Shown one piece after another: positions 2 through 44,347 of a stretch of DNA of 64,000 nucleotides. The notes under the pieces were generated by a model. It had not been told where the DNA came from. It ran no database searches and was given only the letters and a program-made list of their open reading frames with translations. The stretch comes from an uncultured delta proteobacterium (GTDB lineage: Bacteria > Myxococcota_A > Polyangia > Polyangiales > Polyangiaceae), in the NCBI GenBank assembly GCA_963850305.1, contig CAWKKR010000004.1, forward strand, positions 384,001 through 448,000, written 5' to 3'. A program made the translations under genes and the position numbers. How positions within the stretch are numbered: position 1 is the first letter of the stretch; every line of letters starts with the position of its first letter.

Positions 2-547
2 GCCACGGTGCTCGCCGGCTACGGCGATACCCATGACCCCCTGCGTCCGGTCGATACGACCGTGCTCGGTATCTATCGTGCAACCGCCCCGGGACTCGGT
101 TTCTCTCGCGCTTTTCAGGGACAGGTGGGTTGTCTCGGATTTGCGGACGGCAAACTCTACGTGTGCGGCGGTCACGACAGCGACGGGTTCGAGCTGGGCG
201 TCTCGACCGACGTCGGAACTACGGTGACGCGCCTCTTCGACTACGGGGACGTTCAAGGCCCGCTCGCGTGCGCTCCTTCGACCAGCCAGGCGCAGCAGTG
301 CGTCCCGGCCTGGCCTTACACCTGCGGGTCGCTCGCATCCTGTCACGATGGCGACGCGGGCGCGAACTCTGGAGCGACTTCGAGCGGTGGATGCGGCTGC
401 AACAGTCCAGGAAAGTCGAAAACCGACGCCATCGGAACGACCCGGCTCGAGTTGACGCCGGACGCGACGGATCTCGCCGGCGCGCTCGCGTTCGCGGCCA
501 TCACCGCCGCACGCCGCCTCTTGAAGAGACGTCGCGGTCGGTCCTGA
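2..547 (+). CDS. Partial (5'-truncated) secreted protein with C-terminal MYXO-CTERM-like sorting signal
   Basis: Frame is open from the window edge. It ends in SSGGCGC, a hydrophobic helix (LAGALAFAAITAA) and a basic tail (RRLLKRRR), preceded by a Cys-rich segment. Confidence 0.7.
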   Translation, partial: ATVLAGYGDTHDPLRPVDTTVLGIYRATAPGLGFSRAFQGQVGCLGFADGKLYVCGGHDSDGFELGVSTDVGTTVTRLFDYGDVQGPLACAPSTSQAQQCVPAWPYTCGSLASCHDGDAGANSGATSSGGCGCNSPGKSKTDAIGTTRLELTPDATDLAGALAFAAITAARRLLKRRRGRS

Positions 548-572
548 ACGAAGACGTCCGGGCGCGAATTGC

Positions 573-601
573 TGAGCCGTCGAACGGGGGGCTCGCGACT
601 A
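573..601 (+). promoter_or_regulatory. Putative ECF sigma promoter TGAGCC-N17-CGACTA upstream of GH6
   Basis: TGAGCC 573-578, 17-nt spacer, CGACTA 596-601; ATG at 611. Same layout at 2240 and 8538. Confidence 0.65.
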
Positions 602-610
602 TCCGGGCAA

Positions 611-2206
611 ATGCCGATCGAATTGATGTTTCCCGTGCGGGTCGCGCGTCAGGTCTTGCTGTTCGTACCGCTGACGGTCGTCGGATGCTCGGGTGGCAGC
701 GCCGCTTCCCCCGGTCCGACTTCCACTGGCGGAACGGAAACCTACGGTGGAGCCGCCGGCAACGTGTCCAGCGACGAAGCGTCCGGTGGATTCACGACTG
801 GTGGACCCACGAATGGCTCCGGAGGTGAAGCGCCAGACCAGAACGTCACGGGCTCAGGCGGTGCGAGTGCGGGAGGCACGGCGACGAACACGATGGGTGG
901 CGCATCGACGATCGGCTCGGGCGGAAGCGGGAGCGCGGTCACCTCGGACGCGGGCAGCGCGACCGGTATCGTGCACGTCGACAATCCGTTCGAGGGCATC
1001 ACGGGTTACGTGAACCCCGAGTGGCAAGCGAAGGCGAACGGGGAACCCGGCGGAAACAGGATCTCGGACACGCCGACGGCGGTCTGGCTCGATCGGATCG
1101 CGAGCATCGCGGGGACGCCGGATAGCGAGTCGAACGGCGCCATGGGGCTGCGAGACCATCTGAACGCGGCGCTGTCCCAGGGCGCCGGATACATCGAGTT
1201 CGTCATTTACGATCTGCCCGGGCGGGATTGCGCGGCGCTGGCGTCGAACGGGGAACTCGGCCCGACCGACCTTCCCACGTACGAGTCCGACTACATCGAC
1301 CCGATCGCGGCCATCATGAGCGACCCGACGTACGCGAGCCTCCGCATCGTGACGGTGATCGAGCCGGATTCCTTGCCGAATCTGGTGACGAACACCGACG
1401 TAGCGGAGTGCGCGACCATGAAGGCCAACGGCAACTACGTGCAGGGCGTCGCTTACGCGCTCGAAAAGCTCGGCGCGATCGCGAACGTGTACAACTATCT
1501 CGACGCGGGGCACCACGGGTGGGTCGGCTGGGATTCGAACTTTGGCCCCACCGCGGACCTCCTGACGCAGACCGCGCGGATCGCCGGCCTCGGGACGGTG
1601 CAGGGGTTCATCACCAACACGGCAAACTACTCGGCGCTCGTGGAGCCGTACTTCACGGCTGCCACCACCGTGAACGGCACGACGGTGAGGCAGTCCACGT
1701 GGGTGGACTGGAACACGTACGTCGACGAGCTCTCGTTCGCTCAGGCGCTCCGGCAGAAGCTCGTCTCGGAGGGGTTCGATTCGAAGATCGGCATGCTCAT
1801 CGACACCTCCCGGAACGGCTGGGGCGGGCCGGATCGCCCGACCGCAGCGAGCACCTCGACCGACGTCGACACGTTCGTGAACGACTCGCGCATCGACCGG
1901 CGGATCCAGGCGGGGAACTGGTGCAATCAGACCGGAGCGGGCATAGGTGAACGGCCGAGAGCGGATCCCGCGGACGGCGTCGACGCGTACGTTTGGATCA
2001 AGCCGCCCGGAGAGTCCGACGGCTCGAGCACGGCGATCGCGAACAGCGATGGCAAGGGCTTCGACCGGATGTGCGATCCCACCTACGACGGCAACGAGCG
2101 GAACGGAAACAACCCGACCGGCGCGCTCGCGAACGCACCGCTCGCCGGAGCCTGGTTCTCCGCCGAGTTCCAGACACTCATGCAGAACGCCTACCCGCCT
2201 CTTTGA
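611..2206 (+). CDS. GH6 cellobiohydrolase/cellulase, predicted lipoprotein
   Basis: GH6 motifs YDLPGRDCAALASNGE, IEPDSLPNLVTN, DTSRNGWGG, GNWCNQ and WIKPPGESDG. Lipobox-like TVVGC and a Gly/Ser/Thr linker. Start is 611 or 626. Confidence 0.93.
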   Translation: MPIELMFPVRVARQVLLFVPLTVVGCSGGSAASPGPTSTGGTETYGGAAGNVSSDEASGGFTTGGPTNGSGGEAPDQNVTGSGGASAGGTATNTMGGASTIGSGGSGSAVTSDAGSATGIVHVDNPFEGITGYVNPEWQAKANGEPGGNRISDTPTAVWLDRIASIAGTPDSESNGAMGLRDHLNAALSQGAGYIEFVIYDLPGRDCAALASNGELGPTDLPTYESDYIDPIAAIMSDPTYASLRIVTVIEPDSLPNLVTNTDVAECATMKANGNYVQGVAYALEKLGAIANVYNYLDAGHHGWVGWDSNFGPTADLLTQTARIAGLGTVQGFITNTANYSALVEPYFTAATTVNGTTVRQSTWVDWNTYVDELSFAQALRQKLVSEGFDSKIGMLIDTSRNGWGGPDRPTAASTSTDVDTFVNDSRIDRRIQAGNWCNQTGAGIGERPRADPADGVDAYVWIKPPGESDGSSTAIANSDGKGFDRMCDPTYDGNERNGNNPTGALANAPLAGAWFSAEFQTLMQNAYPPL

Positions 2207-2239
2207 TGCTGGTTGATTGCCGCGGATCCCGTTCTTGCT

Positions 2240-2268
2240 TGAGCCGCGAGCGGGGAGCCCGGCGACTA
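2240..2268 (+). promoter_or_regulatory. Putative ECF sigma promoter TGAGCC-N17-CGACTA
   Basis: TGAGCC 2240-2245, CGACTA 2263-2268; ATG at 2278. Confidence 0.65.
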
Positions 2269-2277
2269 CTCGAACAC

Positions 2278-4253
2278 ATGCAGCAGACAGACCCGCGAAC
2301 CCAAGACGCGCTCCGCTCACGCGGCTTGTCTCTGCTCTTCGCAGTATCAATGGCCTGTGCCGTCGCGGCCGCCTGTGCCACGGACGCATCCGGCCCTTCC
2401 CCGGGCTCCGGCGGAGGGAGCTCCCTCTTCAGTGGCGCAGGGGGTGAGTTCGGTTTCGATCCGGTCACGGGGGTCAACTCGACGGACACCGGCGTCGTCG
2501 TGCCGGCGTGCACCAGCGGCTGCACGGACTTGCCGTCGAGTCCGGTGTTCGACATGGCTGGGTCCACGCCGGTGCCGTCGAACGCACCGTCACTGTTCGG
2601 CCCCGCGGGAAACTTCGACGCAACCAGCGGGCCGTGCGTCGTTGAACCTGGGCTGGCGAGCGGCTCGCGTCCGGGCGCGCTCTTTCCGTCCAACTGGCTG
2701 CGGCCGCGGTTCCGCTTCGTTCCCGCGAACGGGGAGAACCTCTTCGAAATCCGCATCAGCGCGCCGGTCGAGAAAGACGCGCTCGTCGCGTACACGACGA
2801 GTACCTCGTGGGCCATCCCGCGAGACATCTGGCAGAAGCTCGCCGCGAACGCGGTCGATCAGCCGATCACCGTCACCATCCGCGCGATCGATGCCAACGC
2901 CCCGGGGCGTCCCTCGGGCACCAGCGGCACGTTCCAGATCGCTCCGGTGCTCGCCGGCGGCGCGATGATCTACTGGGCGGCGACGTCCTCCGACGTGAAC
3001 GCGACCACGAGCAAGCTCGTCGGCTTTCGCGTGGGCGACGAGAGCGTCGTGGACGCGCTCACGATTCCGCAGGTGCAGCAGTCAGGGCTTATCGCGGAGA
3101 GCGGCCAGACCCTTCGCGGTCAATACGGGGACGGCACCGGGATCCCCCGGGACAGGTGGAGTGTATCGGCTGCCACGCCACGACACCGGACGGCAACGCG
3201 GTCGGCTTCACCGATCACTGGCCATGGAACGTGGTCGTCTCGTCGGTGGAGGCCACGTCGGTCGGAGCCGTGCCGGGTTATCTCACCGCGGGCGCAGAGC
3301 TGCTGCTCGATCAACCATGGCTCGGCATGGTCACCTTCTCCGGGGCTCACTTCAGCGTAGGCGATCGCATCCTCGTGACGTCGTACTCACATCGTCAGGT
3401 GAACGACGCGGACAGCGTGGGATTCGCCGGCAGCGACCAGCAGGACGGTGACAGGCTCGCCTGGTTCGACCTCGAGACGACCGCGACCATCTCCTGGCAG
3501 AGCGGGCAGCCGGACTCGACGAACGCGGCGATCCAGAGCGCCTATGGAACGTCGTGGGGACTCCTTTCGCTCGACGGCGAGACACGGACCGCGCTCACGC
3601 CGAACTTCAGCCACGACGGGACGCGGATCGCGTACACGTCGGCCACCTCGTCGCAGGACGGTCGGATCGGGGACAACTCCGAGACGGACGTACACATCGT
3701 CCCGTACGGCGACCGCCAGGGCGGCACCGTGACGCCGCTCGCCGGCGCGTCCTCGCCGGGCATCTCCGAATATTACCCGGCGTTCTCCGCCGATGACGCG
3801 CTCGTCGCGTTCAATCGCGCGGATTCGACGAGCGGGAAAATATACTACAGACCGGACGCGGAGATCTTCGTCGTGCCGGCCACGGGCGGTACGCCGACGC
3901 GCCTCGCCGCCAACGATCCTCCCGCGTGCGGCGGAGAGGTGAGCCCGGGCGTGATCAACAGCTGGGCCAAGTGGTCGCCGTCGGTCGTCGGCACTGCCGG
4001 CAAGCACTATTACTTCCTGATCTTCTCGTCGGCGCGCGACTACCCGGGCACCTTCCGGATACCGGCGGATCAGTACAGTCCGAGCGACACGCGGGCGTCG
4101 CAGCTCTACATGGCCGCCATCGTCCGGGACGACGCGACCGGCGCGCTCACGACCTACGACGCTGTCTATCTGTGGAATCAGGAGCCTTCCACCACGAACC
4201 TCACCCCAGCGTGGGACGAGGCGAACATCCCGCAGGTCCCTCTGATCCATTGA
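2278..4253 (+). CDS. TolB/PD40 beta-propeller lipoprotein with CxxCH motif, split by a 1-nt frameshift at ~3144-3148
   Basis: ORFs 1993..3360 and 2808..4253 join as GIPPGQVECIGCH if one C is added to the C5 run. PD40-like repeats PNFSHDG, PAFSADD and AKWSP. Lipobox AAAC. Confidence 0.7.
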
Positions 4254-4328
4254 CCGCGGCACTTTTCCCCGGGCGACCCCTCAAACTTGAGCCGCCGGCA
4301 GCCCGTAACGCTACGACCGTTTGCGGAA

Positions 4329-4976
4329 ATGCGTCAGCCGTCCGAGCCGAAGCTCTACGTCGTGCGGGACACGACCCCTGCTGCGGCACGCGAGGCGGAC
4401 GACGCCACGATCGCGGTCGCCGCGGCGCGCGGGGAGACATGGGCCGCCGGCGCGGCCTGGGAACGCTACGCCGGTCTCGTCCGAGGAACGCTGCGGCGCT
4501 CGCTCGGCGCACAGGACGTGGACGACCACGTCCAGGAGGTCTTCTTGCGCTTCTTCCGTCACGCGAAGGAGCTCCGAGACCCCTCGGCCCTGCGCGCGTT
4601 TCTCATCGGCATCGCGTACCGGGTCGCGGGGACGGAGCTCCGGCGGCGCCGTGTGCGGCGCATCCTCGGCCTCACGGCGTCGGGTGAGGTGCCCTCCGCC
4701 ATTTCCCCACCTCCGGACGCGGTCGCCCGCGAGGGAGTCGTCCGGCTCTACGCAATCCTGGACCGTATCGAGCCCGACTCGCGACTGCTCTTCACGATGC
4801 GGTACGTCGAGGGCAGAGAGCTCACGGAGATCGCCGAAGCCCTGGGCGTGTCGCTCGCGACGATCAAGCGCCGCATCGCCAAGGCCGGCGAGCTCGTGTT
4901 CCGGATGGCCCGCCGCGATGAGGTGTTGATGGGTTATCTGTCCCGCGGGCTCCACGTGCCCGGAGAGACGTCATGA
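4329..4976 (+). CDS. ECF-type RNA polymerase sigma factor
   Basis: Region 2 DDHVQEVFLRF and region 4 YVEGRELTEIAEALGVSLATIKRRI. Start ATG 4329, inside ORF 4287. Confidence 0.9.
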   Translation: MRQPSEPKLYVVRDTTPAAAREADDATIAVAAARGETWAAGAAWERYAGLVRGTLRRSLGAQDVDDHVQEVFLRFFRHAKELRDPSALRAFLIGIAYRVAGTELRRRRVRRILGLTASGEVPSAISPPPDAVAREGVVRLYAILDRIEPDSRLLFTMRYVEGRELTEIAEALGVSLATIKRRIAKAGELVFRMARRDEVLMGYLSRGLHVPGETS

Positions 4977-6328
4977 ATCGACGAACGCCCGAACCGGATC
5001 GCGAGGCACTGCTGCAGCGCGTCGGCGCGATAGCTAGGGAGACGTGGTCCGACGACGTCTCCCCCGCGGCCGACGCGACCGGGCGTGCACGGCTCGAGGC
5101 CGCCCTCGTCTTCGGCAAAACGCGGCGCTCCGGCTTAGCCAGGCTCGCTCTCGCGGCGGTCGTCGCGGGCGCCGTCGCGCTCGCCCTCGCGTTCTTCTGG
5201 TCGCCCCCGCTCGGGTACGTGGTCGCGGGCTCGTCGTCGAGCGTGGGTGGCTACTTGCAGCCGGGGGACGCCGCGCCGGCGACGGCGAGGTTCACCGACG
5301 GCACGCTCGTGCGCGTCGCGCCGGGCGGCCGCGCGCGAGTCGTGGAGACGGATCGGCACGGCGCACGCGTCGCGCTCGAGCAGGGCCGCGCCATGCTCGA
5401 CGTCGTGCACCGCCCGGGCGCGCACTGGTCCGTCGAGGCGGGCCCCTACACGATCGCCGTGACCGGCACCGAGTTCGATGCGGAGTGGTCGGGCCCGGAC
5501 GAGCGGCTCGTCGTGGAGCTTCGAAGAGGCGCCGTCGTCGTGAGCGGCCCGATGGCGGTGAGCGGCATCGGTCTCGCCGCCGGGCAGCGCCTCGTCGCGA
5601 GCGTCCGCGACGGCCAGCTCCACATCGAGCCGCTCACCCGCAAGGAATCGACCAGCGGTGTTGCCGCACGCGTCGGAGCCCGGGCAGGGCTCGCCGCCGG
5701 GGCCTCTCCCGACGTGGCAGAAGCGACCACGCCGGAGGCCACGCCGACCACGCCGGAGCCCTCCGCGCCGGGAACCGCGCCGGACGAGCCGACCCGCGTG
5801 CCCCAAGAAAACCCGCTCCCCCCGCCGTCGAGCGCGCCCTCCTCCGCGCCCGGTCCGGCGCCCGAGATGAGCTGGGAAAAACGAGTACGTGAGGGCGACT
5901 TCACCGGCGTCGTGCACGACGCGGAGGCGCTCGGTCTCGACGCGACCCTGACGACGGGTTCGCGCGGTGATCTCACGGCGCTCGCCGACGCCGCTCGCTA
6001 CACCGGCAACACGACCGTCGCCGATCGTGCGCTCGTCGCCGTCATGCGGCGATTCCCCGGGTCGCCCGACGCAAGAGCCGCCCCATTTCTCCGCGGCCGA
6101 ATCGCAGAGAAACGCGGCGCCGGCTCCGAAGCCATTGCCCTCTACGATCGCTACCTCTCCGAATCACCGCGCGGTCCGTTCGTCGCGGAGGCACTCGGGC
6201 GAAAGATGCTAGCAGTGGAGGCGCGCGACGGAGCGGGCGCGGCGCGCACGATCGCACGCGACTACCTGGTACGCTTCCCGAGAGGCCCCTATGCGGATCC
6301 CGCCAGAAGGCTCGTGGATTCCGAGTAG
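4973..6328 (+). CDS. FecR-domain anti-sigma factor with Pro-rich linker and C-terminal TPR-like domain
   Basis: One TM helix, FecR motif AGPYTIAVTGTEFDAEW, TPR-like AIALYDRYLSESPRGPF. ATGA overlap with the sigma stop. Confidence 0.85.
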   Translation: MNRRTPEPDREALLQRVGAIARETWSDDVSPAADATGRARLEAALVFGKTRRSGLARLALAAVVAGAVALALAFFWSPPLGYVVAGSSSSVGGYLQPGDAAPATARFTDGTLVRVAPGGRARVVETDRHGARVALEQGRAMLDVVHRPGAHWSVEAGPYTIAVTGTEFDAEWSGPDERLVVELRRGAVVVSGPMAVSGIGLAAGQRLVASVRDGQLHIEPLTRKESTSGVAARVGARAGLAAGASPDVAEATTPEATPTTPEPSAPGTAPDEPTRVPQENPLPPPSSAPSSAPGPAPEMSWEKRVREGDFTGVVHDAEALGLDATLTTGSRGDLTALADAARYTGNTTVADRALVAVMRRFPGSPDARAAPFLRGRIAEKRGAGSEAIALYDRYLSESPRGPFVAEALGRKMLAVEARDGAGAARTIARDYLVRFPRGPYADPARRLVDSE

Positions 6329-7373
6329 CCGCCCCGGAACGTCGTGGGTGATCCTCGCGCTGATCCTGCTCTCGGGGGCGGCGCTCGGCGCGGAACCGCA
6401 GCCATCACGCGTTGCTCTGGTGGAAAGCCGGTCGCCGGACGCCCTGCTAGCAGAGGCCACGATGCGCGTCCGCGCGGAGCTCGCGGCAGCCGGCTTCGAC
6501 GTGGAGCTGCTCGAGGCTTCGCCCGGCGCGGATCCGCGAGCCGAGGTCGAATCCGCCGGTCTCGACCCGCCCCCCGTCGCGACCCTCGCGATCCTCCGCA
6601 CCAGCAGCGCGGCCGCAGTCGACATCTGGGTCGCGGATCGACTGACCGGAAAGACCCTGGTGCGCCGCATCGACGTGAACGACGTGAGCCGGGAGCGCGC
6701 CCCGACGGTCCTCGCCGTCCGCACGGTCGAGCTCCTGCGCGCGAGCTTGCTCGAGGCCACGACGGCCGGCGAACCGGAGACGCCGGAGAAGGCGCCAACG
6801 CCGCGGCCAGTGCCGACTGACGTCGCGCGCTGGATGACACCGCCCTCGATGCCGCCGAAAGATCGCGCCGTCGTCCGTGCCGAGATCGGCGCGGGCTTGC
6901 TCATCGGGTTCTCGGGTTCTCCTCCGGCGTTCGCGCCGGTCCTGCGCGTGGGTTACGGATCCGAGAGTTTGTCGGTGCGGATTTCCATCGTCGCTCCCGC
7001 CGTCGGCGCCGAGGTCGCGGCCCCGGACGGCTCCGCGACGCTGCGCCAGGCCCTCGGCCTCGTCGAGATCACCACCGCCTGGCCGAGGCGCGGCCCCGGG
7101 GCGATCCGCGGCTCGCTGGGCGCCGGCGCCGCCGAGACGCACGTGGTGGGCTCCGCGGAGGCGCCGTACGTCGCGCACCACGGCGACGACTGGAGCTTCG
7201 CGGGGGACGCGGGCCTCGGCGGCATGCTGCGCTTCGGACCGTCGGTGGCTCTCGTCGCCGACATGCACGCCGTGGTCCTCGCGAAGTCACTCGACGTCGA
7301 GCTCGGCGACGCCGCCGAACATGCTCGTCGCCCCATGGAGCTCGCGACACTCGGCCTCCGGGGGTCGTTTTGA
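6291..7373 (+). CDS. Exported protein with probable C-terminal outer-membrane beta-barrel
   Basis: Signal-like LALILLSGAALGA, alternating amphipathic Gly-rich strands and C-terminal Phe (LGLRGSF). Start uncertain (6291 or GTG 6348). Confidence 0.6.
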   Translation: MRIPPEGSWIPSSRPGTSWVILALILLSGAALGAEPQPSRVALVESRSPDALLAEATMRVRAELAAAGFDVELLEASPGADPRAEVESAGLDPPPVATLAILRTSSAAAVDIWVADRLTGKTLVRRIDVNDVSRERAPTVLAVRTVELLRASLLEATTAGEPETPEKAPTPRPVPTDVARWMTPPSMPPKDRAVVRAEIGAGLLIGFSGSPPAFAPVLRVGYGSESLSVRISIVAPAVGAEVAAPDGSATLRQALGLVEITTAWPRRGPGAIRGSLGAGAAETHVVGSAEAPYVAHHGDDWSFAGDAGLGGMLRFGPSVALVADMHAVVLAKSLDVELGDAAEHARRPMELATLGLRGSF

Positions 7374-8521
7374 CGGCAGGGCGCGCGCTCGCCGGATTCG
7401 CCGCGGTGCTCGCCGTCGCGTGCGGGACCGACACGCTCGTCGCCGTCTCCAAGCCCGGTCAGGGACTCACGGACGGAGGCGGACCCACGGCGCCCCTCCA
7501 CACCGATGGCAGCCGCATCGTGGATGGTTCGGGCAACACGGTGCGGCTGACGGGAGTCAGCTGGTTCGGGCTCGAGACGCCGAGCTACGCGCCCGGTGGC
7601 CTCGGGACGCGCTCCATGACGTCCCTGCTCGATCAGATCCGGGCGCTCGGGTTCAACTCCCTCCGCATCCCATTCAGCACCGAGCTCCTCGACCCCACGA
7701 GCCAGCCGCAGGGCATCGATTACACGAAGAACCCAGACCTCACAGGCCTGGACGGAGTCGGCGTGTTCGACGCGCTCGTCCGCGCTGCCACTGCCCGCGG
7801 CCTCGCGGTGATCCTCGATCGCCACGACATCGAGGCCGGGGCCCAGTCCGCGCTCTGGTATGACGGGCAGTATGACGAGGCGCGCTTCATTGCCGACTGG
7901 AAGATGCTCGCGTCGAAGTACCTCGACGAACCCCACGTCGTCGCGTTCGACCTCCACAACGACCCGCATGATCCGGCGACCTGGGGTGACGGGAGTCCGA
8001 CGACCGATTTCGCCGCCATGGCGGTCCGCGTGGGAAACGTCATTCTGGACGCCAATCCGAACCTCCTCGTCATGGTGGAAGGCATCCAGACCGTGGATGG
8101 CAATTCTTACTGGTGGGGCGGCAACCTCCGCGCCGCGGGCCGGAGCCCCGTCACGCTCGAGATCCCCGATCACGTGGTGTACGCGACGACGGACTATCCC
8201 GCGAGCGTCTCCGACCAGCCGTGGTTCCACGATGCCTCGTATCCCGCGAATCTGCCAGCGCTGTGGGACGCGACCTGGGGGTACCTCGTCACGACCGACA
8301 CGACCCCCGTCTATCTCGCCGAGTTCGGCTCCCTGCTGCAGACGGAGTCCGACGACGAATGGTTCTCGTCGATCACGAGTTACGTCGCAGCGCACGAGCT
8401 CAGTTACGGGTACTGGAGTCTCAACCCGGACTCGAGCGGCACCGGAGGCATCCTCGAGAGCGATTGGACGACGGTGAGAGAGCCGGTGATCGAGGGACTG
8501 GCGCCGACGCTCGCGAAATAA
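7370..8521 (+). CDS. GH5 (endoglucanase E1-like) lipoprotein with degenerate active site
   Basis: GVSWFGLET, FNSLRIPFS, ILDRH, WWGGNL, LAEFG and YWSLNPDS are present, but FDLHNDPH replaces NEP and YATTDY replaces YSxHDY. Lipobox LAVAC. TTGA overlap with the upstream stop. Confidence 0.88.
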   Translation: MTAGRALAGFAAVLAVACGTDTLVAVSKPGQGLTDGGGPTAPLHTDGSRIVDGSGNTVRLTGVSWFGLETPSYAPGGLGTRSMTSLLDQIRALGFNSLRIPFSTELLDPTSQPQGIDYTKNPDLTGLDGVGVFDALVRAATARGLAVILDRHDIEAGAQSALWYDGQYDEARFIADWKMLASKYLDEPHVVAFDLHNDPHDPATWGDGSPTTDFAAMAVRVGNVILDANPNLLVMVEGIQTVDGNSYWWGGNLRAAGRSPVTLEIPDHVVYATTDYPASVSDQPWFHDASYPANLPALWDATWGYLVTTDTTPVYLAEFGSLLQTESDDEWFSSITSYVAAHELSYGYWSLNPDSSGTGGILESDWTTVREPVIEGLAPTLAK

Positions 8522-8537
8522 CTGCCAGGTCGATTGC

Positions 8538-8566
8538 TGAGCCTCGGCGGCAGACCCGGGCGACCA
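8538..8566 (+). promoter_or_regulatory. Putative ECF sigma promoter TGAGCC-N17-CGACCA
   Basis: TGAGCC 8538-8543, CGACCA 8561-8566; ATG at 8573. Confidence 0.62.
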
Positions 8567-8572
8567 GCAGGC

Positions 8573-10513
8573 ATGTCCCCGAAGAGCTGGCTTGGCGTGT
8601 TCACTTCGTCGCTCGTGGCGGTCATCGCCATTGCTTGCTCGGCGAGCAACGGCCGAACGAGCGCGGGGCGCAATGACGCCGGCTCGACAGGCGGCTCGGC
8701 TTCGGGGGGCCAGAGTGCCTCGTCGAGCGGGGGCGGAGGCCCCGGCACCGGCTCGAGCGGAGGCGCGCCGGGAACCGAAGGCGGCGCGGGTCCTGGCGCC
8801 GGCGGCTTCGCGACGAACCTCGACGGAGGCCCAACGCCCGGGACCGGCGGAGCCAGCACGGGACCGGTCGCGGTGGACACTACACCGGGCCGTTGGCGAA
8901 CCGCGTTGAACCCCGCGACGGGTCGCTTCCGTTTCATCTCGCCCGACGGCACTCCCACCGTACTCCGTGGCGTTTCAATGACGGGATTCGAGACCGGTAC
9001 GCGCGAGACGGCTTCCGGCGGCGGCTTCTGGCTCTTCAACTCGGGACAGGCGCCGGAATCGACGAACGCGAAGACGGTGCTCGGCAACGTGGTCGACACG
9101 CTGGTCACGAACTGGAAGACGACCGTCGTCCGCATCCCGATCTGCGGCTCCGCGTGGGCTCAGAACTACACGGTGCACGACTATGGCAACGCGGAGATCG
9201 CCACGTACCGAGACTGGGTCGATCTCGCCGTGCAAAAGGCACGCAGCGACGGAGCGGTCGTGATCATCGACAACCATCTCTGGGCCATCGCCAAGATGGG
9301 CGACGGCACCGACGTCGATCGGGGCACGTTCACGAGCAATGGACAGACGTATCAGTACTCCCAGTTCGAAGACGGCTGCACGGGCGTCAACACGACCTCC
9401 GGCGTCGACAGCTGCGCGCCGTCCGACTGGTACACGGGCGATCCCTCGACGTGGGAGTGCCCGATCGCGAACGCGGACGGCGTGTCGATCTACAACGGGT
9501 ACAAGAACGAGAACGCAATCGGCTCCATGTGGGCGGACATCGCGACGCGCTACAAGGGCGACAGCGGCGTCTGGTTCGAGGTATTCAACGAGCCGTACGC
9601 GCGCAAGGCGACCACGCCGTTTCCGAGCTCGGGCGTCAACGAGGACGAGAAGGACTACCCGTGGGATCTCTGGACGTCCTACATGATGACGCAGATCCAG
9701 GCGATCCGCGATCAGGCGAAGGCGCCGAACATCGTCTTGGTGAACGGGCTCGACTTCGGTTACGATTTCGGCCCCGTGTACGGACCGATCGGAAATCCGG
9801 GGAAGTACCTGCCCTGGACCGCGACGTATCCGAACATCGCGTACGCGTTTCATCCGTACCAGCACGGTGCGTGCTGCGGCCAGATCGGAACCTCCGGCAC
9901 GGATCTGAGCCGGAGCGATCCGTACGAGTCCGGCTTCTGCTCCTATTACGAGGACGGCTCGACGTGGGGAACGGCGAGCGGCGCCGCCTTGCCAGGCGGG
10001 AACTCCTGCAGCAACGTCGGTTACGCGTCGACGCAGGACAAGAAGATGCCGCCGTGCACCTGGGTCGACGCCGCGTGGAATCCCAGTACGCAGTCGCTCG
10101 GCTTGTGCGCGGGCGATCGCACCGCGTGCGGGTCGAAGAACAAGGCCGAGTGCCTGGCCGTGGACCGGGGCTCACCTTCCGCCGGAGGCTGGTCGCAATA
10201 CGTCCTTCCGATGGCGAAGTTCGGTCCGCTGATCGCGACGGAGTTCGGCTCGTTCGACTGCAGCTCGCCCTTCGTCACAACGCTGCTCGACTACGCGAAC
10301 GCGTACGACATCTCGTACACCGCGTGGGCGCTCTGGCCCCAGAACAGTGGCGGCCCGGCAGGGCTCGGTTCCTGTGGCTACCCCTCGGTCATGACCTCGA
10401 GCCCGGACCCCGGAGATTTTCGTCAATGCTTCAGCCCCGCCGCCTGCGCATCGTTGATGCAACCCCTGCCCTGGTCGGGACAGGCGACCTTTCAGGATCT
10501 GATGAGTCACTGA
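8573..10513 (+). CDS. GH5-like glycoside hydrolase lipoprotein with Cys-rich insertions
   Basis: LRGVS, VVRIP, IIDNH, FEVFNEP (acid/base), YAFHPY, IATEFG (nucleophile) and YTAWA. Lipobox IAIAC and Gly-rich linker. Confidence 0.82.
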   Translation: MSPKSWLGVFTSSLVAVIAIACSASNGRTSAGRNDAGSTGGSASGGQSASSSGGGGPGTGSSGGAPGTEGGAGPGAGGFATNLDGGPTPGTGGASTGPVAVDTTPGRWRTALNPATGRFRFISPDGTPTVLRGVSMTGFETGTRETASGGGFWLFNSGQAPESTNAKTVLGNVVDTLVTNWKTTVVRIPICGSAWAQNYTVHDYGNAEIATYRDWVDLAVQKARSDGAVVIIDNHLWAIAKMGDGTDVDRGTFTSNGQTYQYSQFEDGCTGVNTTSGVDSCAPSDWYTGDPSTWECPIANADGVSIYNGYKNENAIGSMWADIATRYKGDSGVWFEVFNEPYARKATTPFPSSGVNEDEKDYPWDLWTSYMMTQIQAIRDQAKAPNIVLVNGLDFGYDFGPVYGPIGNPGKYLPWTATYPNIAYAFHPYQHGACCGQIGTSGTDLSRSDPYESGFCSYYEDGSTWGTASGAALPGGNSCSNVGYASTQDKKMPPCTWVDAAWNPSTQSLGLCAGDRTACGSKNKAECLAVDRGSPSAGGWSQYVLPMAKFGPLIATEFGSFDCSSPFVTTLLDYANAYDISYTAWALWPQNSGGPAGLGSCGYPSVMTSSPDPGDFRQCFSPAACASLMQPLPWSGQATFQDLMSH

Positions 10514-10541
10514 CCGCCCGTCGCGCCCGGGAGCGTCGCGG

Positions 10542-12182
10542 TCAGTCCTGAACGAAGTCTTCTTCGACGTAAAACGCAGCGCGCGTGCCGAAGCCGATCC
10601 CGGCGAGCAGCATCAGTCCAGCGAAGAGCCAGAAGAAGCTCACCAGAGGAAGCTTGGACAGCTCCGCCAGGACCGAGACGAGCACGTTGCCGATCGCCAC
10701 CGTGAGCAGCCAGAAGCCCATGATGGTCGACTTCATCCGCTTCGGCGCCTGGGAGTACGCAAACTCGAGACCGGTGATCGACACGAGCACCTCCGCGACC
10801 GTGATGATGACGTACGGCACGGCCTGCCACAGGATGCTCACCTTCCCCGGTCCGCTCCGATCGATTGCCGCCTGGATCAGCGCGACGGCCACGAACGAGA
10901 GCGACGCGACGATCATCCCGGCCGTCATGCGGCGCAGGGCCGTCGTGCGAACGCCGAGCTTCTCTACAACGGGATATCCGACGTAGTTCATGAAGGGAAT
11001 CAGGAGCATGACGAACACCGGGTTCAGCGCCTGCAGCTGAGCCGGCAAGATCTCGAAACCGAGAAAGCGCGCGCTTCGCATCATCTCCGCCTGCCGGACC
11101 CACGACGACCCGCTCTGGTCGAAGAGGGCCCAGAAGAGACTCACGAGAACGAACACGCTCATGATCTTGAGAACCGCGTGCGCGCCGCGCACGGTCTCCG
11201 CGCCGAAGTACCGAACGGCGGGTTGCAGGAAGCGACTCTCACCGGGCTCCGCGGAGGCGGTGCCGCGACCGCGGAGCCACTCTCGCGCAGCGCACAGCAC
11301 GATGGCCAGAAAGCCGTCGTCAGGTGCGCGGCGTTGTCGGATCGCGAAGAGGCCAAGCCCCGTTGCAAGGAAGCCGAGCGAGACGAGCACGATGACGAAC
11401 GCCGGCAGATCGGCGGTGAAGAACAGGTGCCCGAACGTCATGAACAGCGCAAACGACGACAGCGTGTCGAGGAGCCCGAGGGAGCCGCCCGGTGCGGGAG
11501 GCACGTGCACGAACACGTTCCGTCCCATGAAAAATACGATCGTTGCCAGGAGCATGAGCACGCCCGGGATGGCGAACGCGACGCTGATGGCGTGTCGCCC
11601 CCAGAAATCCGTCCGTGTATCGTGCCAGTCGAACACCCACGGGATGAGCAACATCGACAGCGTGCTGCCGAAGTTGATCATGAAATAGAAGATTTGATAG
11701 ATCGTCCGCAGGCGAAACCAGTTGTTCTTGCCGAACTGGTCACCGACGTGCGCGGACACACACGGCTTGATGCCACCAGAGCCGATCGCGACGAGCGTGA
11801 GCCCGCCCCACAGCCCGAGGAGCGAACCCTCGGTCAGCGAGAGAACCGCATGGCCGGCGCAGTACACGAGCGAGAGCCACAGGATGGTCCGGTACTTTCC
11901 GAGATAGCGGTCCGCGACGATCGCGCCGACCATCGGGAGCGCGTAGACCCCGGCGGCGAAGAGATGATAGTGCGCGGTCGCGACGTCGGCGACGTGTGCC
12001 GCGTACTCCGGATGGCGCGGGTAGAGCTGACCCGCCATGTACACGTAGAGGATCGATCGCATGCCGTAGTAGCTGAAACGCTCGCACCCCTCGTTGCCGA
12101 CGATGTACGGCACACCCGGCGGCCACTCCGTGGTGAAGGGGTCCGGCGCCGTGCGCGGTCCGCGTGCCGGCACGACGCTCAC
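10542..12182 (-). CDS. POT/PTR family proton-dependent oligopeptide transporter
   Basis: NEGCERFSYYG, GSGGIKPCVSAHVGDQF and GLEFAYSQAP. GTG start overlaps the upstream stop. Confidence 0.93.
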   Translation of the reverse strand: MSVVPARGPRTAPDPFTTEWPPGVPYIVGNEGCERFSYYGMRSILYVYMAGQLYPRHPEYAAHVADVATAHYHLFAAGVYALPMVGAIVADRYLGKYRTILWLSLVYCAGHAVLSLTEGSLLGLWGGLTLVAIGSGGIKPCVSAHVGDQFGKNNWFRLRTIYQIFYFMINFGSTLSMLLIPWVFDWHDTRTDFWGRHAISVAFAIPGVLMLLATIVFFMGRNVFVHVPPAPGGSLGLLDTLSSFALFMTFGHLFFTADLPAFVIVLVSLGFLATGLGLFAIRQRRAPDDGFLAIVLCAAREWLRGRGTASAEPGESRFLQPAVRYFGAETVRGAHAVLKIMSVFVLVSLFWALFDQSGSSWVRQAEMMRSARFLGFEILPAQLQALNPVFVMLLIPFMNYVGYPVVEKLGVRTTALRRMTAGMIVASLSFVAVALIQAAIDRSGPGKVSILWQAVPYVIITVAEVLVSITGLEFAYSQAPKRMKSTIMGFWLLTVAIGNVLVSVLAELSKLPLVSFFWLFAGLMLLAGIGFGTRAAFYVEEDFVQD

Positions 12183-20503: not shown

Positions 20504-22080
20504 TCAATATGGCGAATCGTACGCGTTCGGATCGGGCGACGCGCTGGGCTGCGCCTTCGCCCCACTCGGGCTCCCGTTCGAGGGGGACGCCGTATTTCCG
20601 TCCCCTCGTCGCATGTCCATCAGCACGTCCTTCAACGGACGCCAGCCGTGCCGTCGCAAATACTCCCTGTAACCCTGCTCGCGTCGCGCCGCTTCGGCCT
20701 CCGCATCGACAGGCGCGACCTCGCCCTTCGCGGGGGTCGAGCCCGGGAGGCGGGGCTTGATTTTTGGGGGACCGCCGGCTTCTCGTCGGACACCGAGCGC
20801 CCCGCGACGGCGACAGGGTCGTCCAGGTCGTCGTCGGTTGCCTCGGGCTCTGGTTCGGCCGCAACGAACGGCACGTCCGGCACCCGGGAAATCTCCCCGA
20901 ACGGACCGACGAAGTACGGCTCCGCCCACCGCGCCGGCTCGACGGAGCCCTCCTCGCTCGCATTCAGGTGTGCTTGCCGTGCGAAGGCGCGCCAAAAGGA
21001 CGTCCCTTCGCGCGATCTGGCGATCGCGCTGGCGCCGCTGATGACGACCAGCCACGCGATTAGGGCCGCGACCGGAACCGCGCGAACGCGGACGGGCGGA
21101 CGCGACGGGATGGCGACGGGCGCGTCGCTCCGCACGCGACGTGGCTCCGGCGTGCGCGCGTCAGGCAGCTCGACGGCGGGCAAATAGCTCGGCGCTGGCG
21201 CGACTGCGGGACTCGTGCGGAGGAGCGCCGCCGCACGGTAGACACGTAAGGCATCGACGAGCTCCCCGACCGAGTAAAATCGATCCGCCGGATTCTTCTC
21301 GAGACACCGCCGCACGATACCGTCGAGCTGTCGATCGATCTCCGGCCGGAGCTCTCCCAGCGGTCGCGGTGCAGCGTTGGCGACACGCGCGAACACTTCC
21401 ACCACCGTGTCGCCGTCGAACGGCAGCTCTCCCGATAGAAACTGATAGAGCACGACCCCGAGAGACCAGATGTCGGTCCGGCTGTCGATCGTTCGCGGGG
21501 AGCTCATCTGCTCGGGCGACATGTAGCAAGGGGAGCCCATGTTCTCCTGCGGCCCCGTCTCGATCTTCGCCCGGCTCGCGTCGAGGCGCTTCGCGATCCC
21601 GAAGTCGACCACCTTGACGATCGACCGGCGTGACGGTCCCTGAACCAGGAAGAGATTTTCCGGCTTGATGTCGCGGTGGACGATCGATACGGCGTGCGCC
21701 TCGGCCAGAGCCTCGCACGCCTGCAGAACGTAATCGACGGCGCGATCCGGCGGAAACGGCCCCTCCTTTCGGAGGAGCGCCTCGAGATCGGTTCCCTCGA
21801 GGTACTCCATGACGAAGTAGGGAACGCCATCGGAGAGCTGCCCGACATCCATCACGCGCACGACGTGTTCGCCCCGAAGCGCCGCGGCCGCGCGAGCCTC
21901 TTCGAGGAAGCGCCCTACGAGCGCCGCGTTCCGCGCGAGTTCCGGGTGAAGGAATTTGAGCGCGACCGGTTGCCCGAGCTCGACGTGCCGCGCGAGCCAG
22001 ACGACGCCCATACCGCCGCTCGCGAGAACCCGTTCCAGGGCGTAGCGCTCCGCAATCGAAGCCCCTGGCGCGAGCTGCAT
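20504..22080 (-). CDS. Membrane Ser/Thr protein kinase, tail frameshifted at ~20761-20770
   Basis: SGGMGVV, VALK, HRDIKPEN, DFG and YMSPE, plus a TM helix. Adding one base in the T5G5 run continues into PPKIKPRL...AYDSPY (ORF 20504..21055). Confidence 0.88.
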
Positions 22081-39172: not shown

Positions 39173-40576
39173 CTACCTGAACCACTGACTCGGAGGTGGA
39201 ATGTAGATCCCGCCGGGGCCGGTTCGCCGATGATGGTCTTCCTGACGGCGCTCGTAGCGCCGGGCGTGCGCTCTGTCGGGGCGCGGTCGCCCCGTGGCGG
39301 TCTCGGACTCCGTGCTCGGAGCCGCACTCGGCGCCGTCGAGTCGGTCGCGCTCGCGGAGGGAGCTAGCTCGGCGGACGGAGCTGGCAATCCGAGCGCAGA
39401 CGGCACGGGCGCCGAGGGCTCGAGGACCGGCGCGGCGGTCGCGCTCGACGTCGGCGCGACGTCAGCGCTTCCCTCGTGCGGCCCAGCGGCGCCGCGTGAG
39501 CGATAGATCGCACCGAGCGCGAGGATCGCCGCCACGGCACCCGCGGCGATGAGCGCCCCTCTGCGCTTCGAATGCACCGGTGGGGCCACCGCGGACGACG
39601 CGTCGAAAGTCGTGGCTGCCGTCGCGAGCGGCGCGGCTGGCGGCCCGCCGAGGGGCGAGCTTCGAACTCCCACGACGGATACCGGGTGCGCTTCGAACAC
39701 GCCCATGCTCCCCCGGAGCCGCCCCAGTTCCGCGGAGAGCTCGGCAGCCGTCTGAATGCGTGCATCCGGCTTCTGCGCCAGCAGTCGCTGGATGAGCTCG
39801 AACACGTCCGGGGGCACGCCGGGCAGCGGGGGGACGGCCTCGGTCAGCTGTTTCGCGACGATCTGGGCAGGCTCCTCTGCCGTGAAGGGGCAATGCCCGG
39901 CCAGTATCTCGTAGAGCACGATGCCGCACGAGTAGAGGTCGGCACGAAGGTCCACGGCGAGCCCGAGCGCTTGCTCGGGCGCCATGTAGCCCGCGGTTCC
40001 CATGACGGTCCCGAACCGGGTCAGGTTGCGTGCCGGTTCCGCTGCCTCCGGAGCGCCGGACACCTTCGCGATCCCGAAATCCAGCACCTTCACGACCTCG
40101 CGGCCGTCGGGCTGCGGGACGAGCATCACGTTGTCGGGCTTCAGGTCGCGATGAACGACGCCCGCGGCATGGGCGGCGACCAGGGCCTCGGCGACCTGGT
40201 GCGCAATCCCCAGGGCCCGTGCCGGGTCGAGCGGCCCCTGCTCGACGAGCGACCGCAAGCTATGGCCCGCGACGTATTCGAGAGCCAGGTAAAAAGAGCC
40301 GTCCGGGAGACGCCCGAAGTCCATCGCTGCCGCGACGTTCGGGTGGTCGATGCGCGCGGCCGCGACCGCTTCGCGCTCGAACCGCGCCGCGATCTCGCCG
40401 TTCCCGCTCATCTCGGCGTGCAGCACCTTCACCGCCACGGCCTTCTTCATCAGGACGTGTTCGGCGAGATAGACGGACCCCATGCCGCCGGACCCGAGGA
40501 GTCGCTCGACGCGGTACCTGCCGGCGAGCACGGTGCCGACGAGGGCATGATCCTGGGGACTCGGGTCTTCGCTCAT
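39173..40576 (-). CDS. Membrane Ser/Thr protein kinase
   Basis: GSGGMG, VAVK, HRDLKPDN, DFG and YMAPE; TM helix; C-terminal GPGGIYIPPPSQWF. Confidence 0.93.
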   Translation of the reverse strand: MSEDPSPQDHALVGTVLAGRYRVERLLGSGGMGSVYLAEHVLMKKAVAVKVLHAEMSGNGEIAARFEREAVAAARIDHPNVAAAMDFGRLPDGSFYLALEYVAGHSLRSLVEQGPLDPARALGIAHQVAEALVAAHAAGVVHRDLKPDNVMLVPQPDGREVVKVLDFGIAKVSGAPEAAEPARNLTRFGTVMGTAGYMAPEQALGLAVDLRADLYSCGIVLYEILAGHCPFTAEEPAQIVAKQLTEAVPPLPGVPPDVFELIQRLLAQKPDARIQTAAELSAELGRLRGSMGVFEAHPVSVVGVRSSPLGGPPAAPLATAATTFDASSAVAPPVHSKRRGALIAAGAVAAILALGAIYRSRGAAGPHEGSADVAPTSSATAAPVLEPSAPVPSALGLPAPSAELAPSASATDSTAPSAAPSTESETATGRPRPDRAHARRYERRQEDHHRRTGPGGIYIPPPSQWFR

Positions 40577-40654
40577 CGCCGACAAGGCCATTCTGGCCCG
40601 AACGGAGATAGGTTACCCTCGAATCTCCGAGGGTCTCAGGAAGAAAGGTTCACG

Positions 40655-42652: not shown

Positions 42653-43705
42653 ATGCTGCCAGGTGGAATGCGGCGGTGGCTCGCGGTGAGCGCGTGGTGC
42701 GCGGTCGTGTTCTCCTTGCAAAAGAGAGGACGCGCGGACGAAGAGCCGCCTTTCCTCATCGCGCTCGACACCTGCGATGAACTGAACGAGGCGGACGTGC
42801 GACGGATCACCGCTGCCGAGCTCGGGGCGCGCCCGACGACGGAGCCGGGCCTCGACGTGACGGTGGTCAACGTCACGTGCACGGGCGCGCGCGTGACGAT
42901 CCGGGTGCATGACCCTTTGAGCCGAAAAAACGTGCGAAGGTCATTCGACCTCGAGCTCTCGGATCCGCGGGCACGCGACCGGCTCGTGTCCTTGGCGGCG
43001 ACGGAGCTCGTTCTCGCGAGCTGGGCGGAGCTGCAAGCGAGTCCCAAGCTTCGCGTCGAGCCCGAAGGACCGAAACCTCCGCCCGCGACGGTCCACGCTG
43101 CGCAGAGGATCGCGCAAGAACGCGTTCCCTATGTGCCCAAGATCATCACCTGGGCGGACGAGGAGACCCCCGCGGACCGTATGTTCCGCATCGTCGGCCT
43201 GGTCTCGACGCGGTCGTTCTTCGGACATGGCGGCGCGCTCTGGGGCGGCGGCGTTCGGGTCGGGGAAGAACGGTTTCGCTTCGTCGGCTGGTCCGCTGAC
43301 CTCCTGGTCGAGCGTGGAACTCTATCCGGTCCCGATGGCCCCTACGACGTGTTCACCACGACCCTGGGAGGCGGGTTGTTCGCGGCGCTGCAAACTCGTT
43401 TCGTGACAGCGCGTCTCGGTGCGGGCCTGCGGCTGGGCACGGCGAGTGCGACGCTCCGCGGCGATCCGAGCGCGGGCTCCGCGCTCGTGCCCTGGGGCTG
43501 GCCGCTCGGGGGTGCTCAGCTTTCATTCCGCCTGGCATCCTCGTTGGTCCTCGATCTGGCGGGCGAGGGCGGCTACGCTGTGTTGCCGCTCGGCGACAAC
43601 GCGGAGCACAGTCTCTCGGGCGGATGGTATTCGCTGCAGGCGGGCCTCGGGTTCGTGCCTTTCCCACCGGCGTCGGCGTCCTCGGCGGACGCGCCGGAAG
43701 ATTAG
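42653..43705 (+). CDS. Exported protein with probable C-terminal beta-barrel (partner of ECF/FecR pair)
   Basis: Signal peptide; RLVSLAATELVLASW resembles TVLAVRTVELLRASL of 6291..7373; Gly/aromatic strands. Confidence 0.6.
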   Translation: MLPGGMRRWLAVSAWCAVVFSLQKRGRADEEPPFLIALDTCDELNEADVRRITAAELGARPTTEPGLDVTVVNVTCTGARVTIRVHDPLSRKNVRRSFDLELSDPRARDRLVSLAATELVLASWAELQASPKLRVEPEGPKPPPATVHAAQRIAQERVPYVPKIITWADEETPADRMFRIVGLVSTRSFFGHGGALWGGGVRVGEERFRFVGWSADLLVERGTLSGPDGPYDVFTTTLGGGLFAALQTRFVTARLGAGLRLGTASATLRGDPSAGSALVPWGWPLGGAQLSFRLASSLVLDLAGEGGYAVLPLGDNAEHSLSGGWYSLQAGLGFVPFPPASASSADAPED

Positions 43706-43795
43706 GCGCCCGGCGAGACAAAAGACGCCGTCTTCGGCGCAGAAGAACGACGAATGAGCCGTTTCCGGAACCCGCGTCCACTGAGAGACGGACCC

Positions 43796-44347
43796 ATGCC
43801 CGGCGACCCTCCGGCCCTCCACGTCGTCGCGTCGCTGGACGCTTCGGCGGGCGATTCCGCGATGGACCTGGACGCCCTGTTTCGCCGGTACGCGTCGTAT
43901 GTCGCCGCCGTCGCACACCGTCTCCTCGGCCGCGACGACGACGTGGACGACACGGTTCAAGACGTGTTCGTCGCCGCCGTGCGCGGACTGCACAACATCC
44001 GGGACCCGAACGCCGTGAAGGCGTGGCTCGCGCGCATTGCGGTTCGCTCGGCCCGGCGACGGCTCCAGAAGCGCCGCGTGCGCTCGTTTCTCGGGCTCGA
44101 CGAGCCGTCGGTGTACGCCGAGGTCACGGACCGCTCGGCGAATCCGGAGCAGAAGGCGCTGCTGAGCCGCGTCTACCGGGTGCTCGAGGGCATCCCGGTG
44201 AACGAACGCATCGCCTGGACGCTTCGCTTCGTGGAAGGGGAACCGCTCGAAAACGTGGCGCAGCTCTCCGGGTGCTCCCTCGCGACGGCCAAGCGCCGCA
44301 TTGCGTCCGCGTCGAGGACGATCGAAGGGGCGTTTGCCGATGTCTGA
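43796..44347 (+). CDS. ECF-type RNA polymerase sigma factor
   Basis: DDTVQDVF, AWLARIA and FVEGEPLENVAQLSGCSLATAKRRI. Start is 43796 or 43754. Confidence 0.9.
   Translation: MPGDPPALHVVASLDASAGDSAMDLDALFRRYASYVAAVAHRLLGRDDDVDDTVQDVFVAAVRGLHNIRDPNAVKAWLARIAVRSARRRLQKRRVRSFLGLDEPSVYAEVTDRSANPEQKALLSRVYRVLEGIPVNERIAWTLRFVEGEPLENVAQLSGCSLATAKRRIASASRTIEGAFADV

Follow-up and report, generated by a model that had tools for sequence, protein, structure and literature searches.

A catalytically degenerate GH5 lipoprotein as candidate glucan receptor of a four-gene sigma factor cassette in a Polyangiaceae genome

We analysed a stretch of 64,000 nucleotides from an uncultured delta proteobacterium of the Polyangiaceae (assembly GCA_963850305.1, contig CAWKKR010000004.1, positions 384,001 to 448,000 of the forward strand), referred to here as the window. 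Near its start, four consecutive genes encode an extracytoplasmic function (ECF) sigma factor, a predicted anti-sigma factor with FecR and TPR domains, a secreted protein ending in a small beta-barrel and a lipoprotein of the glycoside hydrolase family GH5 whose catalytic set is broken. We consider it moderately probable that this dead GH5 serves a four-gene sigma switch as its glucan receptor, docking on the barrel and controlling a sigma factor that raises cellulases. The cassette is best read as a probable TonB-independent cell-surface-signalling relay in which a pseudo-cellulase receptor is paired with a cellulase regulon. In the literature searched, we found no explanation of how cellulolytic myxobacteria detect their insoluble substrate. 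The locus names candidates for the receptor, the barrel, the anti-sigma factor, the sigma factor, the promoter and the target genes, which can be addressed in cultured Sorangium, where the same motif occurs. If true, the reading would tie the orphan group ECF267 to a stimulus and a promoter, demonstrate that a signal can cross an 8-stranded barrel, and offer a modular sensor that turns sugar into transcription, with exchangeable receptor domains.

Conserved degeneration of the GH5 lipoprotein

The catalytic positions of the GH5 lipoprotein were read from its alignment to Acidothermus E1 (1ECE), the best solved match (E=2e-102, residues 43-376), which we take to belong to GH5 subfamily 1. All 11 best solved matches fall in the GH5_1-type group (E1/Pyrococcus, E 2e-102 to 2e-60), and structure 2ZUN is listed as GH5_1. 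In the available part of PMC5491509, Glu162 and Glu282 are named as the catalytic pair of E1. The alignment bore out both active-site changes described in the initial annotation: unlike E1, the window copy has Asp198 at the acid/base position, turning NEP into NDP, and Thr274 opposite His238. The annotation had also stated that the nucleophile is kept, which holds for this copy (Glu318 opposite Glu282) and not for its relatives, and that the binding Trp residues are kept, which holds for the equivalents of E1 W212, W213 and W319, whereas those of W42 and H39 are now Gly and that of Y245 is Ser. Arg99, His152, Asn197 and Tyr276 are retained. Among the features of E1 as an active endoglucanase, the protein has the full-length similarity and the nucleophile Glu and lacks the acid/base Glu and the His. 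These GH5 lipoproteins carry an endoglucanase annotation despite their incomplete catalytic set, so such annotations should be taken with caution.

The degeneration extends beyond one genome. Among the best 119 of the 425 homologues found, 113 have Glu, His and Glu at the three sites, the His being present in all 113 that bear NEP; the other six, which include the five closest homologues, have Asp, Ser or Gln, and Gly. We compared the genome under study (G000) with six genomes of the same genus (G001-G006) and with one of another genus (G331). The dead GH5 gene is present in all six same-genus genomes, five of which encode elsewhere a second GH5_1 nearer the consensus, with intact sites in the four that were read out. 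Unlike these five, G000 and G003 gave no second close GH5_1 with the dead-GH5 query. An alignment of 11 clade members showed that the Asp is invariant and that the His is lost and the Gly preceding the nucleophile replaced in every one, while 10 have Gly or Ala at the nucleophile itself. Of the WW pair, 7/11 retain the first Trp and 4/11 the second. In a tree of 36 rows, the 13 dead rows lie on one side of a branch with support 99/96. The best 150 representative matches added two clade members.

The window copy nests with those of G003, P0003 and P0004 (99/99), all of which have Gly at the nucleophile position, so Glu318 was likely regained secondarily. Its codon is GAG, compared with GGC in the two nearest relatives and GGC, GGG or GCG across relatives. 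An error at this codon is also possible, since no reads cover it: the only DNA read run listed, at share 0.05, matches only 6749-7028 at full identity and reaches none of Asp198, Thr274 and Glu318; no RNA run was listed. The ratio of nonsynonymous to synonymous substitution rates (dN/dS) was 0.23-0.41 in all six pairs tested and 0.24 to the nearest orthologue (Nei-Gojobori, with dS near saturation). The GC content at third codon positions (GC3) is 0.86, like that of the neighbouring genes, and the reading frames are intact in the orthologues. These values support a conserved degeneration under apparent purifying selection.

Decay or an assembly error confined to one genome is hardly credible here, being largely refuted by the orthologues. 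The neighbouring PD40 lipoprotein gene does break frame near a C run at 3144-3148 (an assembly indel or a pseudogene, with the orthologues L133, L144 and L150 aligning across both frames), so the assembly may carry indels, and no reads cover the three sites. However, the same loss of Glu and His recurs in six other genomes of the genus and four metagenomic proteins, with intact frames and the GC3 and dN/dS given above. The view of the initial annotation that a sequencing error is unlikely is upheld on these grounds, and an error could concern only Glu318. A pair of frameshifts behind the Thr codon was also considered and ruled out, because the orthologues carry Ser or Gln at that position.

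Altered catalysis, in the form of a slow hydrolase or transglycosylase acting through the invariant Asp and, in the window copy, the Glu nucleophile, would fit the conservation of Asp198, the GAG codon of Glu318 and the four other retained residues. We regard it as very unlikely given that 10 of the 11 clade members, as well as G331, have no nucleophile, that the His is lost throughout the clade and that G331 has Gly at the acid/base position. Separately, different catalytic losses were seen in the unrelated GH5_1-like domains of P0242, P0257, P0336 and P0359, some of which lie in tandem multi-GH5 proteins.

The cassette, its barrel protein and the slot behind it

The order, strand and coordinates of the four genes given in the initial annotation agree with the Pfam matches and open reading frames (Table 1). 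As it had noted, the TTG start of the GH5 gene (7370-7372) overlaps the TGA of the barrel gene (7371-7373), and the identical overlap is found in the orthologues of L034, L037 and L040. Overlap of all four genes, also proposed there, applies only if ATG 6291 is the start of the barrel gene; with the in-frame GTG at 6348 as start, a gap would separate the FecR and barrel genes. The same order was found in G001-G006 (6/6), in several different neighbourhoods, and a complete cassette is also present in G331. An order-wide search matched 26 of 401 genomes and returned 30 loci. In this survey, none of the six distinct GH5 proteins encoded directly behind a barrel gene has the acid/base Glu, which is shown in 21 of the 22 loci without a barrel; the remaining one is an alignment slip that reads Glu in the homologue alignment. 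The GH5 of G331, one of these six, has Gly at the acid/base position, a kept His and Ala at the nucleophile. It lies outside the 11-member dead clade (SH-aLRT 95, an open fork in a quick unrooted tree). Because it carries different changes and lies outside the main clade, a second, independent recruitment of GH5 is possible. A metagenome pattern scan gave only two loci, both with the cassette. A second sigma-FecR/TPR-barrel cassette of the same genome, L033 (G000:C8 ~101600-104500, minus strand), has a PA14 lipoprotein gene ~2 kb on.

The barrel protein consists of an alpha/beta domain (~6402-6764), a linker and an 8-stranded barrel (~6861-7370) ending in Phe, and its family has no Pfam or NCBIfam match. 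An AlphaFold2 model built from 120 sequences, with a predicted local distance difference test (pLDDT) score of 92.7, superseded a first model from seven sequences (pLDDT 62.7). VIA placed the barrel closest to OmpW (Z 18.1, root-mean-square deviation 2.8 over 167 residues), with Z 17-18 to OmpW, OprF, NspA and OmpA; Foldseek agreed, returning OmpA, NspA and OmpX. The predicted structure is therefore that of a small outer-membrane-type beta-barrel, as the initial annotation had proposed for the third gene. The alpha/beta domain showed likeness to TolB-N, PelC and LpoB-type interaction domains on the model with pLDDT 62.7, with atlas leads at 0.84-0.86 that serve as a lead only, and its VIA rows (Z 9-10) are generic alpha/beta folds. 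The family has 398 homologues, and its atlas clusters are mostly from Myxococcota. Sigma and FecR genes lie upstream in 51 of 63 barrel genome loci; the other 12 are mostly on short contigs, and L055 and L066 have 5 kb without a match.

Co-folding of the barrel protein with the lipoprotein scored 0.52, compared with 0.00 for the best control, with at least 71% of contacts shared between runs and a partner pLDDT of 90 or more. Of 157 solved pairs, 116 reached the mark, as did 2 of 215 mismatched pairs; at scores of 0.60 or less, only 18 of the 157 did so, along with both mismatches. The result weakly supports the proposed docking and gives no interface.

The gene after the barrel is a dead GH5 in six loci. 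A Pfam scan of 24 other fourth genes assigned 12 to LamG/ConA, 4 to PL1 and 1 to GH12, and gave no family for 4; the remaining three encode a cytochrome c protein, a glucuronoyl esterase and a Cys-rich protein, and none of these overlaps the barrel gene. The GH5 is not the stand-alone pseudo-cellulase described initially: the fourth slot is fixed, while the domain that fills it can be exchanged, GH5 being one of several. The lipoproteins of this slot share a hydrophobic motif, [IVL]-x-[AVI]-[VIAT], at +5 to +8 after the lipobox Cys, which is a candidate barrel-docking strand. A count by eye on hand-picked sets, the same that defined the motif, gave 25 of 35 for fourth-slot lipoproteins and 0 of 20 for those of the regulon; L076, in which no lipobox was called, was left out. 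The regulon lipoproteins mostly show Ser/Gly linkers after the Cys. The motif also occurs in G331 and in three of four Sorangium loci (out of six inspected) where a gene for a LamG and ricin-B lipoprotein lies convergent behind the barrel gene; G331 and the three Sorangium cases were not used to define it. Six PL1-type fourth-slot lipoproteins carry a variant of the motif.

Two groups of fourth-slot lipoproteins are of interest in themselves. PL1-fold members are encoded in L055 (6011-7681), L064, L070 and L079. By eye, L055 and L061 are without the Arg of the RxPxxR-type motif, and the first Arg is kept in L064, L070 and L079, so a graded loss of lyase function is possible. The lipoproteins of L053, L054 (5978-7486) and L056 (5948-7261) have a domain of ~400 aa without a Pfam match, a candidate new ligand-binding family.

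Promoter-like motif and predicted regulon

The sequence TGAGCC-N16-GCTAC precedes the sigma gene in the window and in G001, G002, G003, G004 and G006; in G005, the sigma start lies off its contig. The general form TGAGCC-N16-GC(T/G)AC has only four exact matches in the window, each followed after 8-14 nt by the ATG of a gene, namely GH6, PD40, sigma or the intact GH5. Genome-wide, there are 19 exact matches, of which only 4 have an ATG gene within 40 nt, all at the window locus; with other spacer lengths, this was the case for 0-2 of 5-19 matches. In G001, G002, G004, G005 and G006, an extended motif occurred 33 times, compared with 12 for a reversed control. The 30 motif loci examined comprised 8 GH5, 4 GH6, 1 GH43, 1 Cip1-like, 4 sigma and 3 PD40 orthologues, along with 4 Cys-rich lipoproteins, 1 VWA and 1 DUF1592; for the other 3, no gene was called. 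The same motif is present in the cassette loci of Sorangium. Together, these comparisons support a promoter-like motif that links the sigma gene to glucanase genes, a link absent from the initial annotation. ECF sigma factors autoregulate, and because of this the cassette sigma presumably reads the motif.

A position-weight scan of the genome gave no other convincing regulon member, the four local sites ranking top and the next scoring 15.8, compared with 15.9 for the fourth. The motif was missing from the 404 nt available upstream of the intact GH5 of G001 and did not precede those of G060, G026 or G013. A search of 400-10700 gave no sigma-70 promoter.

Two protein groups recur near the motif. 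Small Cys-rich lipoproteins (174-204 aa, no Pfam match) lie behind it in four relatives (L135, L141, L149 and L156). DUF1592/1588/1595 proteins are found repeatedly behind the motif or beside the cassette (L137:2-1477, L187:1-1863, L051:603-2522 and L052:7133-9001), and this placement hints that the family serves polysaccharide use.

The dead GH5 is transcribed in the sigma factor's own operon and is therefore a regulon member whatever else it does. It could thus be an output of the system, a surface protein for glucan capture or adhesion that sits on the barrel and is co-induced with the cellulases, the signal entering via the barrel, the TPR domain or a kinase. Some cassettes without an adjacent fourth gene would fit this, as would the inactive GH5_1 modules that occur with expansin in Xanthomonas and the kinase control suggested in the available part of the ECF267 description (Casas-Pastor et al. 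2021, PMC7826278). In the window, no protein kinase is encoded within 1-16 kb, and kinase-like open reading frames were seen by eye at 20632-22080 and 39173-40591. Yet the regulon enzymes sit elsewhere under their own motif copies and do not carry the post-Cys motif (0/20), whereas the slot is always filled by a single binding-type domain that is translationally coupled to the barrel and whose type, in the window, matches the nearby enzymes (GH5 with GH5/GH6). We therefore consider a role purely as output unlikely.

Signalling model, known systems and neighbouring features

The favoured relay, with the dead GH5 as receptor, can be laid out in five steps. Its starting points, read from sequence comparison, are a GH5 with a broken catalytic set whose fold appears to be kept under selection, the fixed slot of its gene behind sigma, FecR/TPR and barrel genes, and the predicted promoter motif before the cassette, GH6, PD40 and intact GH5 genes. 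The post-Cys strand would then fasten the lipoprotein to the barrel, its GH5 cleft pointing outward, and the cleft would bind beta-1,4-glucan, either cello-oligosaccharides or the chain ends of cellulose, and leave it uncut. On the model of FoxA and FoxR, the periplasmic domain of the barrel protein would contact and shield the TPR end of the anti-sigma factor. Ligand binding would alter this contact, the Gly-Thr-split anti-sigma factor would be proteolysed and the freed sigma factor would raise the cassette and the glucanases. The predicted anti-sigma factor has, by hydropathy, a cytoplasmic part of ~57 aa, one transmembrane helix (residues 58-76), a FecR domain (101-188) with Gly-Thr at 165-166, a Pro-rich linker and a C-terminal region that matches TPR_16 in Pfam and not an STN-like domain; the Gly-Thr is found in 54 of 55 homologues.

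The same relay could instead operate within the periplasm, the post-Cys strand pairing with the alpha/beta domain, imported cello-oligosaccharides being sensed and the barrel acting as an anchor. Eight-stranded barrels have no obvious pore, the alpha/beta domain resembles interaction domains in the preliminary comparison above, and eight TonB-dependent receptors are encoded elsewhere in the genome. Against this arrangement, folds that bind polymers (PL1 with a CBM-like domain, and LamG with ricin-B) also occupy the slot, and a dedicated barrel is kept in every cassette, for which purely periplasmic sensing would have no obvious need. A periplasmic sensor thus seems rather unlikely.

A number of observations weigh against a surface glucan receptor with its own regulon. 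The compared genomes are kin and not independent. Some barrel loci have no same-strand fourth gene, and the L033 cassette has no lipoprotein gene directly behind its barrel gene and no promoter-motif match. In the window copy, the nucleophile is Glu. The cleft aromatics are unevenly kept, and this copy has lost the H39 and W42 equivalents, so the ligand may be another one or may vary. The co-folding pass is of a weak kind, which the tool rates as more often wrong than right unless the pair was likely beforehand. As for the regulon, 16 of the 30 motif loci fall outside the sigma-independent glucanases and Cip1, the motif extension was drawn partly from glucanase promoters, the third GH5 of G000 (C8:921187) is not among the motif matches, and another sigma factor could read the motif.

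The comparison with published systems rests on the portions of the cited papers that were available. ECF267 comprises ECF sigma factors of Sorangium and Chondromyces whose anti-sigma factor, FecR-like and fused to TPR, lies in +1 and which have no FecA-like receptor (Casas-Pastor et al. 2021, PMC7826278). The window system is like it in having a FecR+TPR anti-sigma in +1 and no TonB receptor in the window context. Its sigma factor is ~48% identical to the Sorangium cassette sigmas. What was available of the description mentions no barrel, lipoprotein or stimulus, reports promoter motifs as not conserved and suggests kinase control, whereas in the window system a barrel is present, the fourth slot holds a lipoprotein and the motif is conserved.

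With FecI/FecR/FecA and Pseudomonas FoxI/FoxR/FoxA, the cassette shares an ECF sigma factor, a single-pass FecR anti-sigma factor with Gly-Thr and a linked outer-membrane protein with a periplasmic N-terminal domain, predicted in our case. FoxR self-cleaves at Gly-Thr and is shielded by FoxA (PMC11637429). Unlike these systems, the cassette has no TonB-dependent transducer, an 8-stranded barrel, TPR instead of an STN-like domain and a separate lipoprotein as the likely ligand binder. In line with the initial annotation, no PF00593 match was found within the 64 kb; eight lie elsewhere in the genome, the nearest ~44 kb past the window end. The system would work like cell-surface signalling but falls outside the FecIRA type, because the window encodes no TonB transducer and TPR replaces STN.

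The closest functional parallel for the GH5 lies in Clostridium thermocellum RsgI/Rsi24C. In Rsi24C, the GH5 module has lost the acid/base and binds crystalline cellulose as a sensor (PMC3526467, PMC6852018); sensor domains are interchangeable (carbohydrate-binding module, PA14 or GH), and the sigma factor autoregulates and controls carbohydrate-active enzymes (CAZymes). In that Gram-positive system, the sensor is fused to the anti-sigma factor, whereas here a separate lipoprotein gene encodes the GH5 and there is an outer membrane for the signal to cross. Dma1/Das1 of Bacteroides thetaiotaomicron (PMC10927553) likewise combines an 8-stranded outer-membrane barrel with an ECF anti-sigma factor and no TonB. 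However, Dma1 is one polypeptide across both membranes that belongs with ECF21, controls vesiculation and is reported, in the part available, only in Bacteroidota, with no FecR/TPR and no partner pseudo-enzyme described. In the window and in 6/6 same-genus cassettes, anti-sigma factor and barrel are separate genes in different frames, fused forms not having been searched for.

A review of hemicellulase regulation names myxobacteria, in its available part, only in the references (PMC10766802), and we found no description of a sigma-FecR/TPR-barrel-lipoprotein architecture in the literature searched, most subscription papers lying outside that search. The dead-GH5 clade, its tie to the fourth slot and the promoter-like motif with its predicted cellulase regulon are new here. 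More tentatively, and with somewhat less than even confidence, the cassettes may represent a third route of trans-envelope transcription control in Myxococcota. A small barrel would display an exchangeable lipoprotein by its N-terminal strand, with recruited enzymes killed into receptors (for GH5, possibly more than once), and the signal would pass via the 8-stranded barrel to the TPR anti-sigma factor and a matched CAZyme regulon, with no TonB or large receptor.

Table 1. Genes, residues and predicted sites of the cassette and its neighbourhood in the window
Feature	Position	Strand	Basis or remark
GH6 cellulase-family lipoprotein, predicted regulon member	611..2206	+	Pfam PF01341 E=1e-93; lipobox
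PD40/propeller-type lipoprotein, predicted regulon member	2278..4253	+	orthologues L133, L144, L150; PD40 match in L150
ECF sigma factor (215 aa), ECF267-like	4329..4976	+	Pfam PF04542 (Sigma70_r2), PF08281 (r4_2)
Predicted FecR+TPR anti-sigma factor	4973..6328	+	Pfam PF04773, PF13432
Secreted protein without family name, alpha/beta domain and 8-stranded OmpW/OmpA-like barrel	6291..7373	+	predicted fold
Catalytically degenerate GH5_1-type lipoprotein (383 aa), lipobox Cys18 at 7421-7423	7370..8521	+	
Second GH5 lipoprotein, NEP and EFG motifs intact, predicted regulon member	8573..10513	+	Pfam PF00150; motifs from translation
Post-Cys hydrophobic motif (+5 to +8), candidate barrel-docking strand	7436..7447	+	common to fourth-slot lipoproteins
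Asp198 in place of acid/base Glu (faces E1 Glu162)	7961..7963	+	NDP, AAC GAC CCG 7958-7966; Asp in 11/11 clade members
Thr274 (ACG) in place of E1 His238	8189..8191	+	Ser or Gln in other 10 clade members
Glu318 at nucleophile position (faces E1 Glu282)	8321..8323	+	Gly or Ala in other 10 clade members
Predicted target promoter TGAGCC-N16-GCGAC before GH6 gene	573..599	+	exact match, ATG 11 nt downstream
Predicted target promoter before PD40 lipoprotein	2240..2266	+	exact match, ATG 11 nt downstream
Predicted autoregulatory promoter TGAGCC-N16-GCTAC of cassette	4288..4314	+	motif and spacing kept in relatives
Predicted target promoter before second GH5	8538..8564	+	exact match, ATG 8 nt downstream

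The PD40 lipoprotein gene adjoins the cassette in the window and in L035, and its orthologues read through the frame break. A further cassette with a different order, encoding a secreted protein, an ECF sigma factor and a FecR protein with a TPR-like tail, lies at 42653-45497 of the window (plus strand). Its secreted protein weakly resembles the barrel family (hhalign probability 18%), and a TGAGCC hexamer stands just upstream of it, with a different -10 region.

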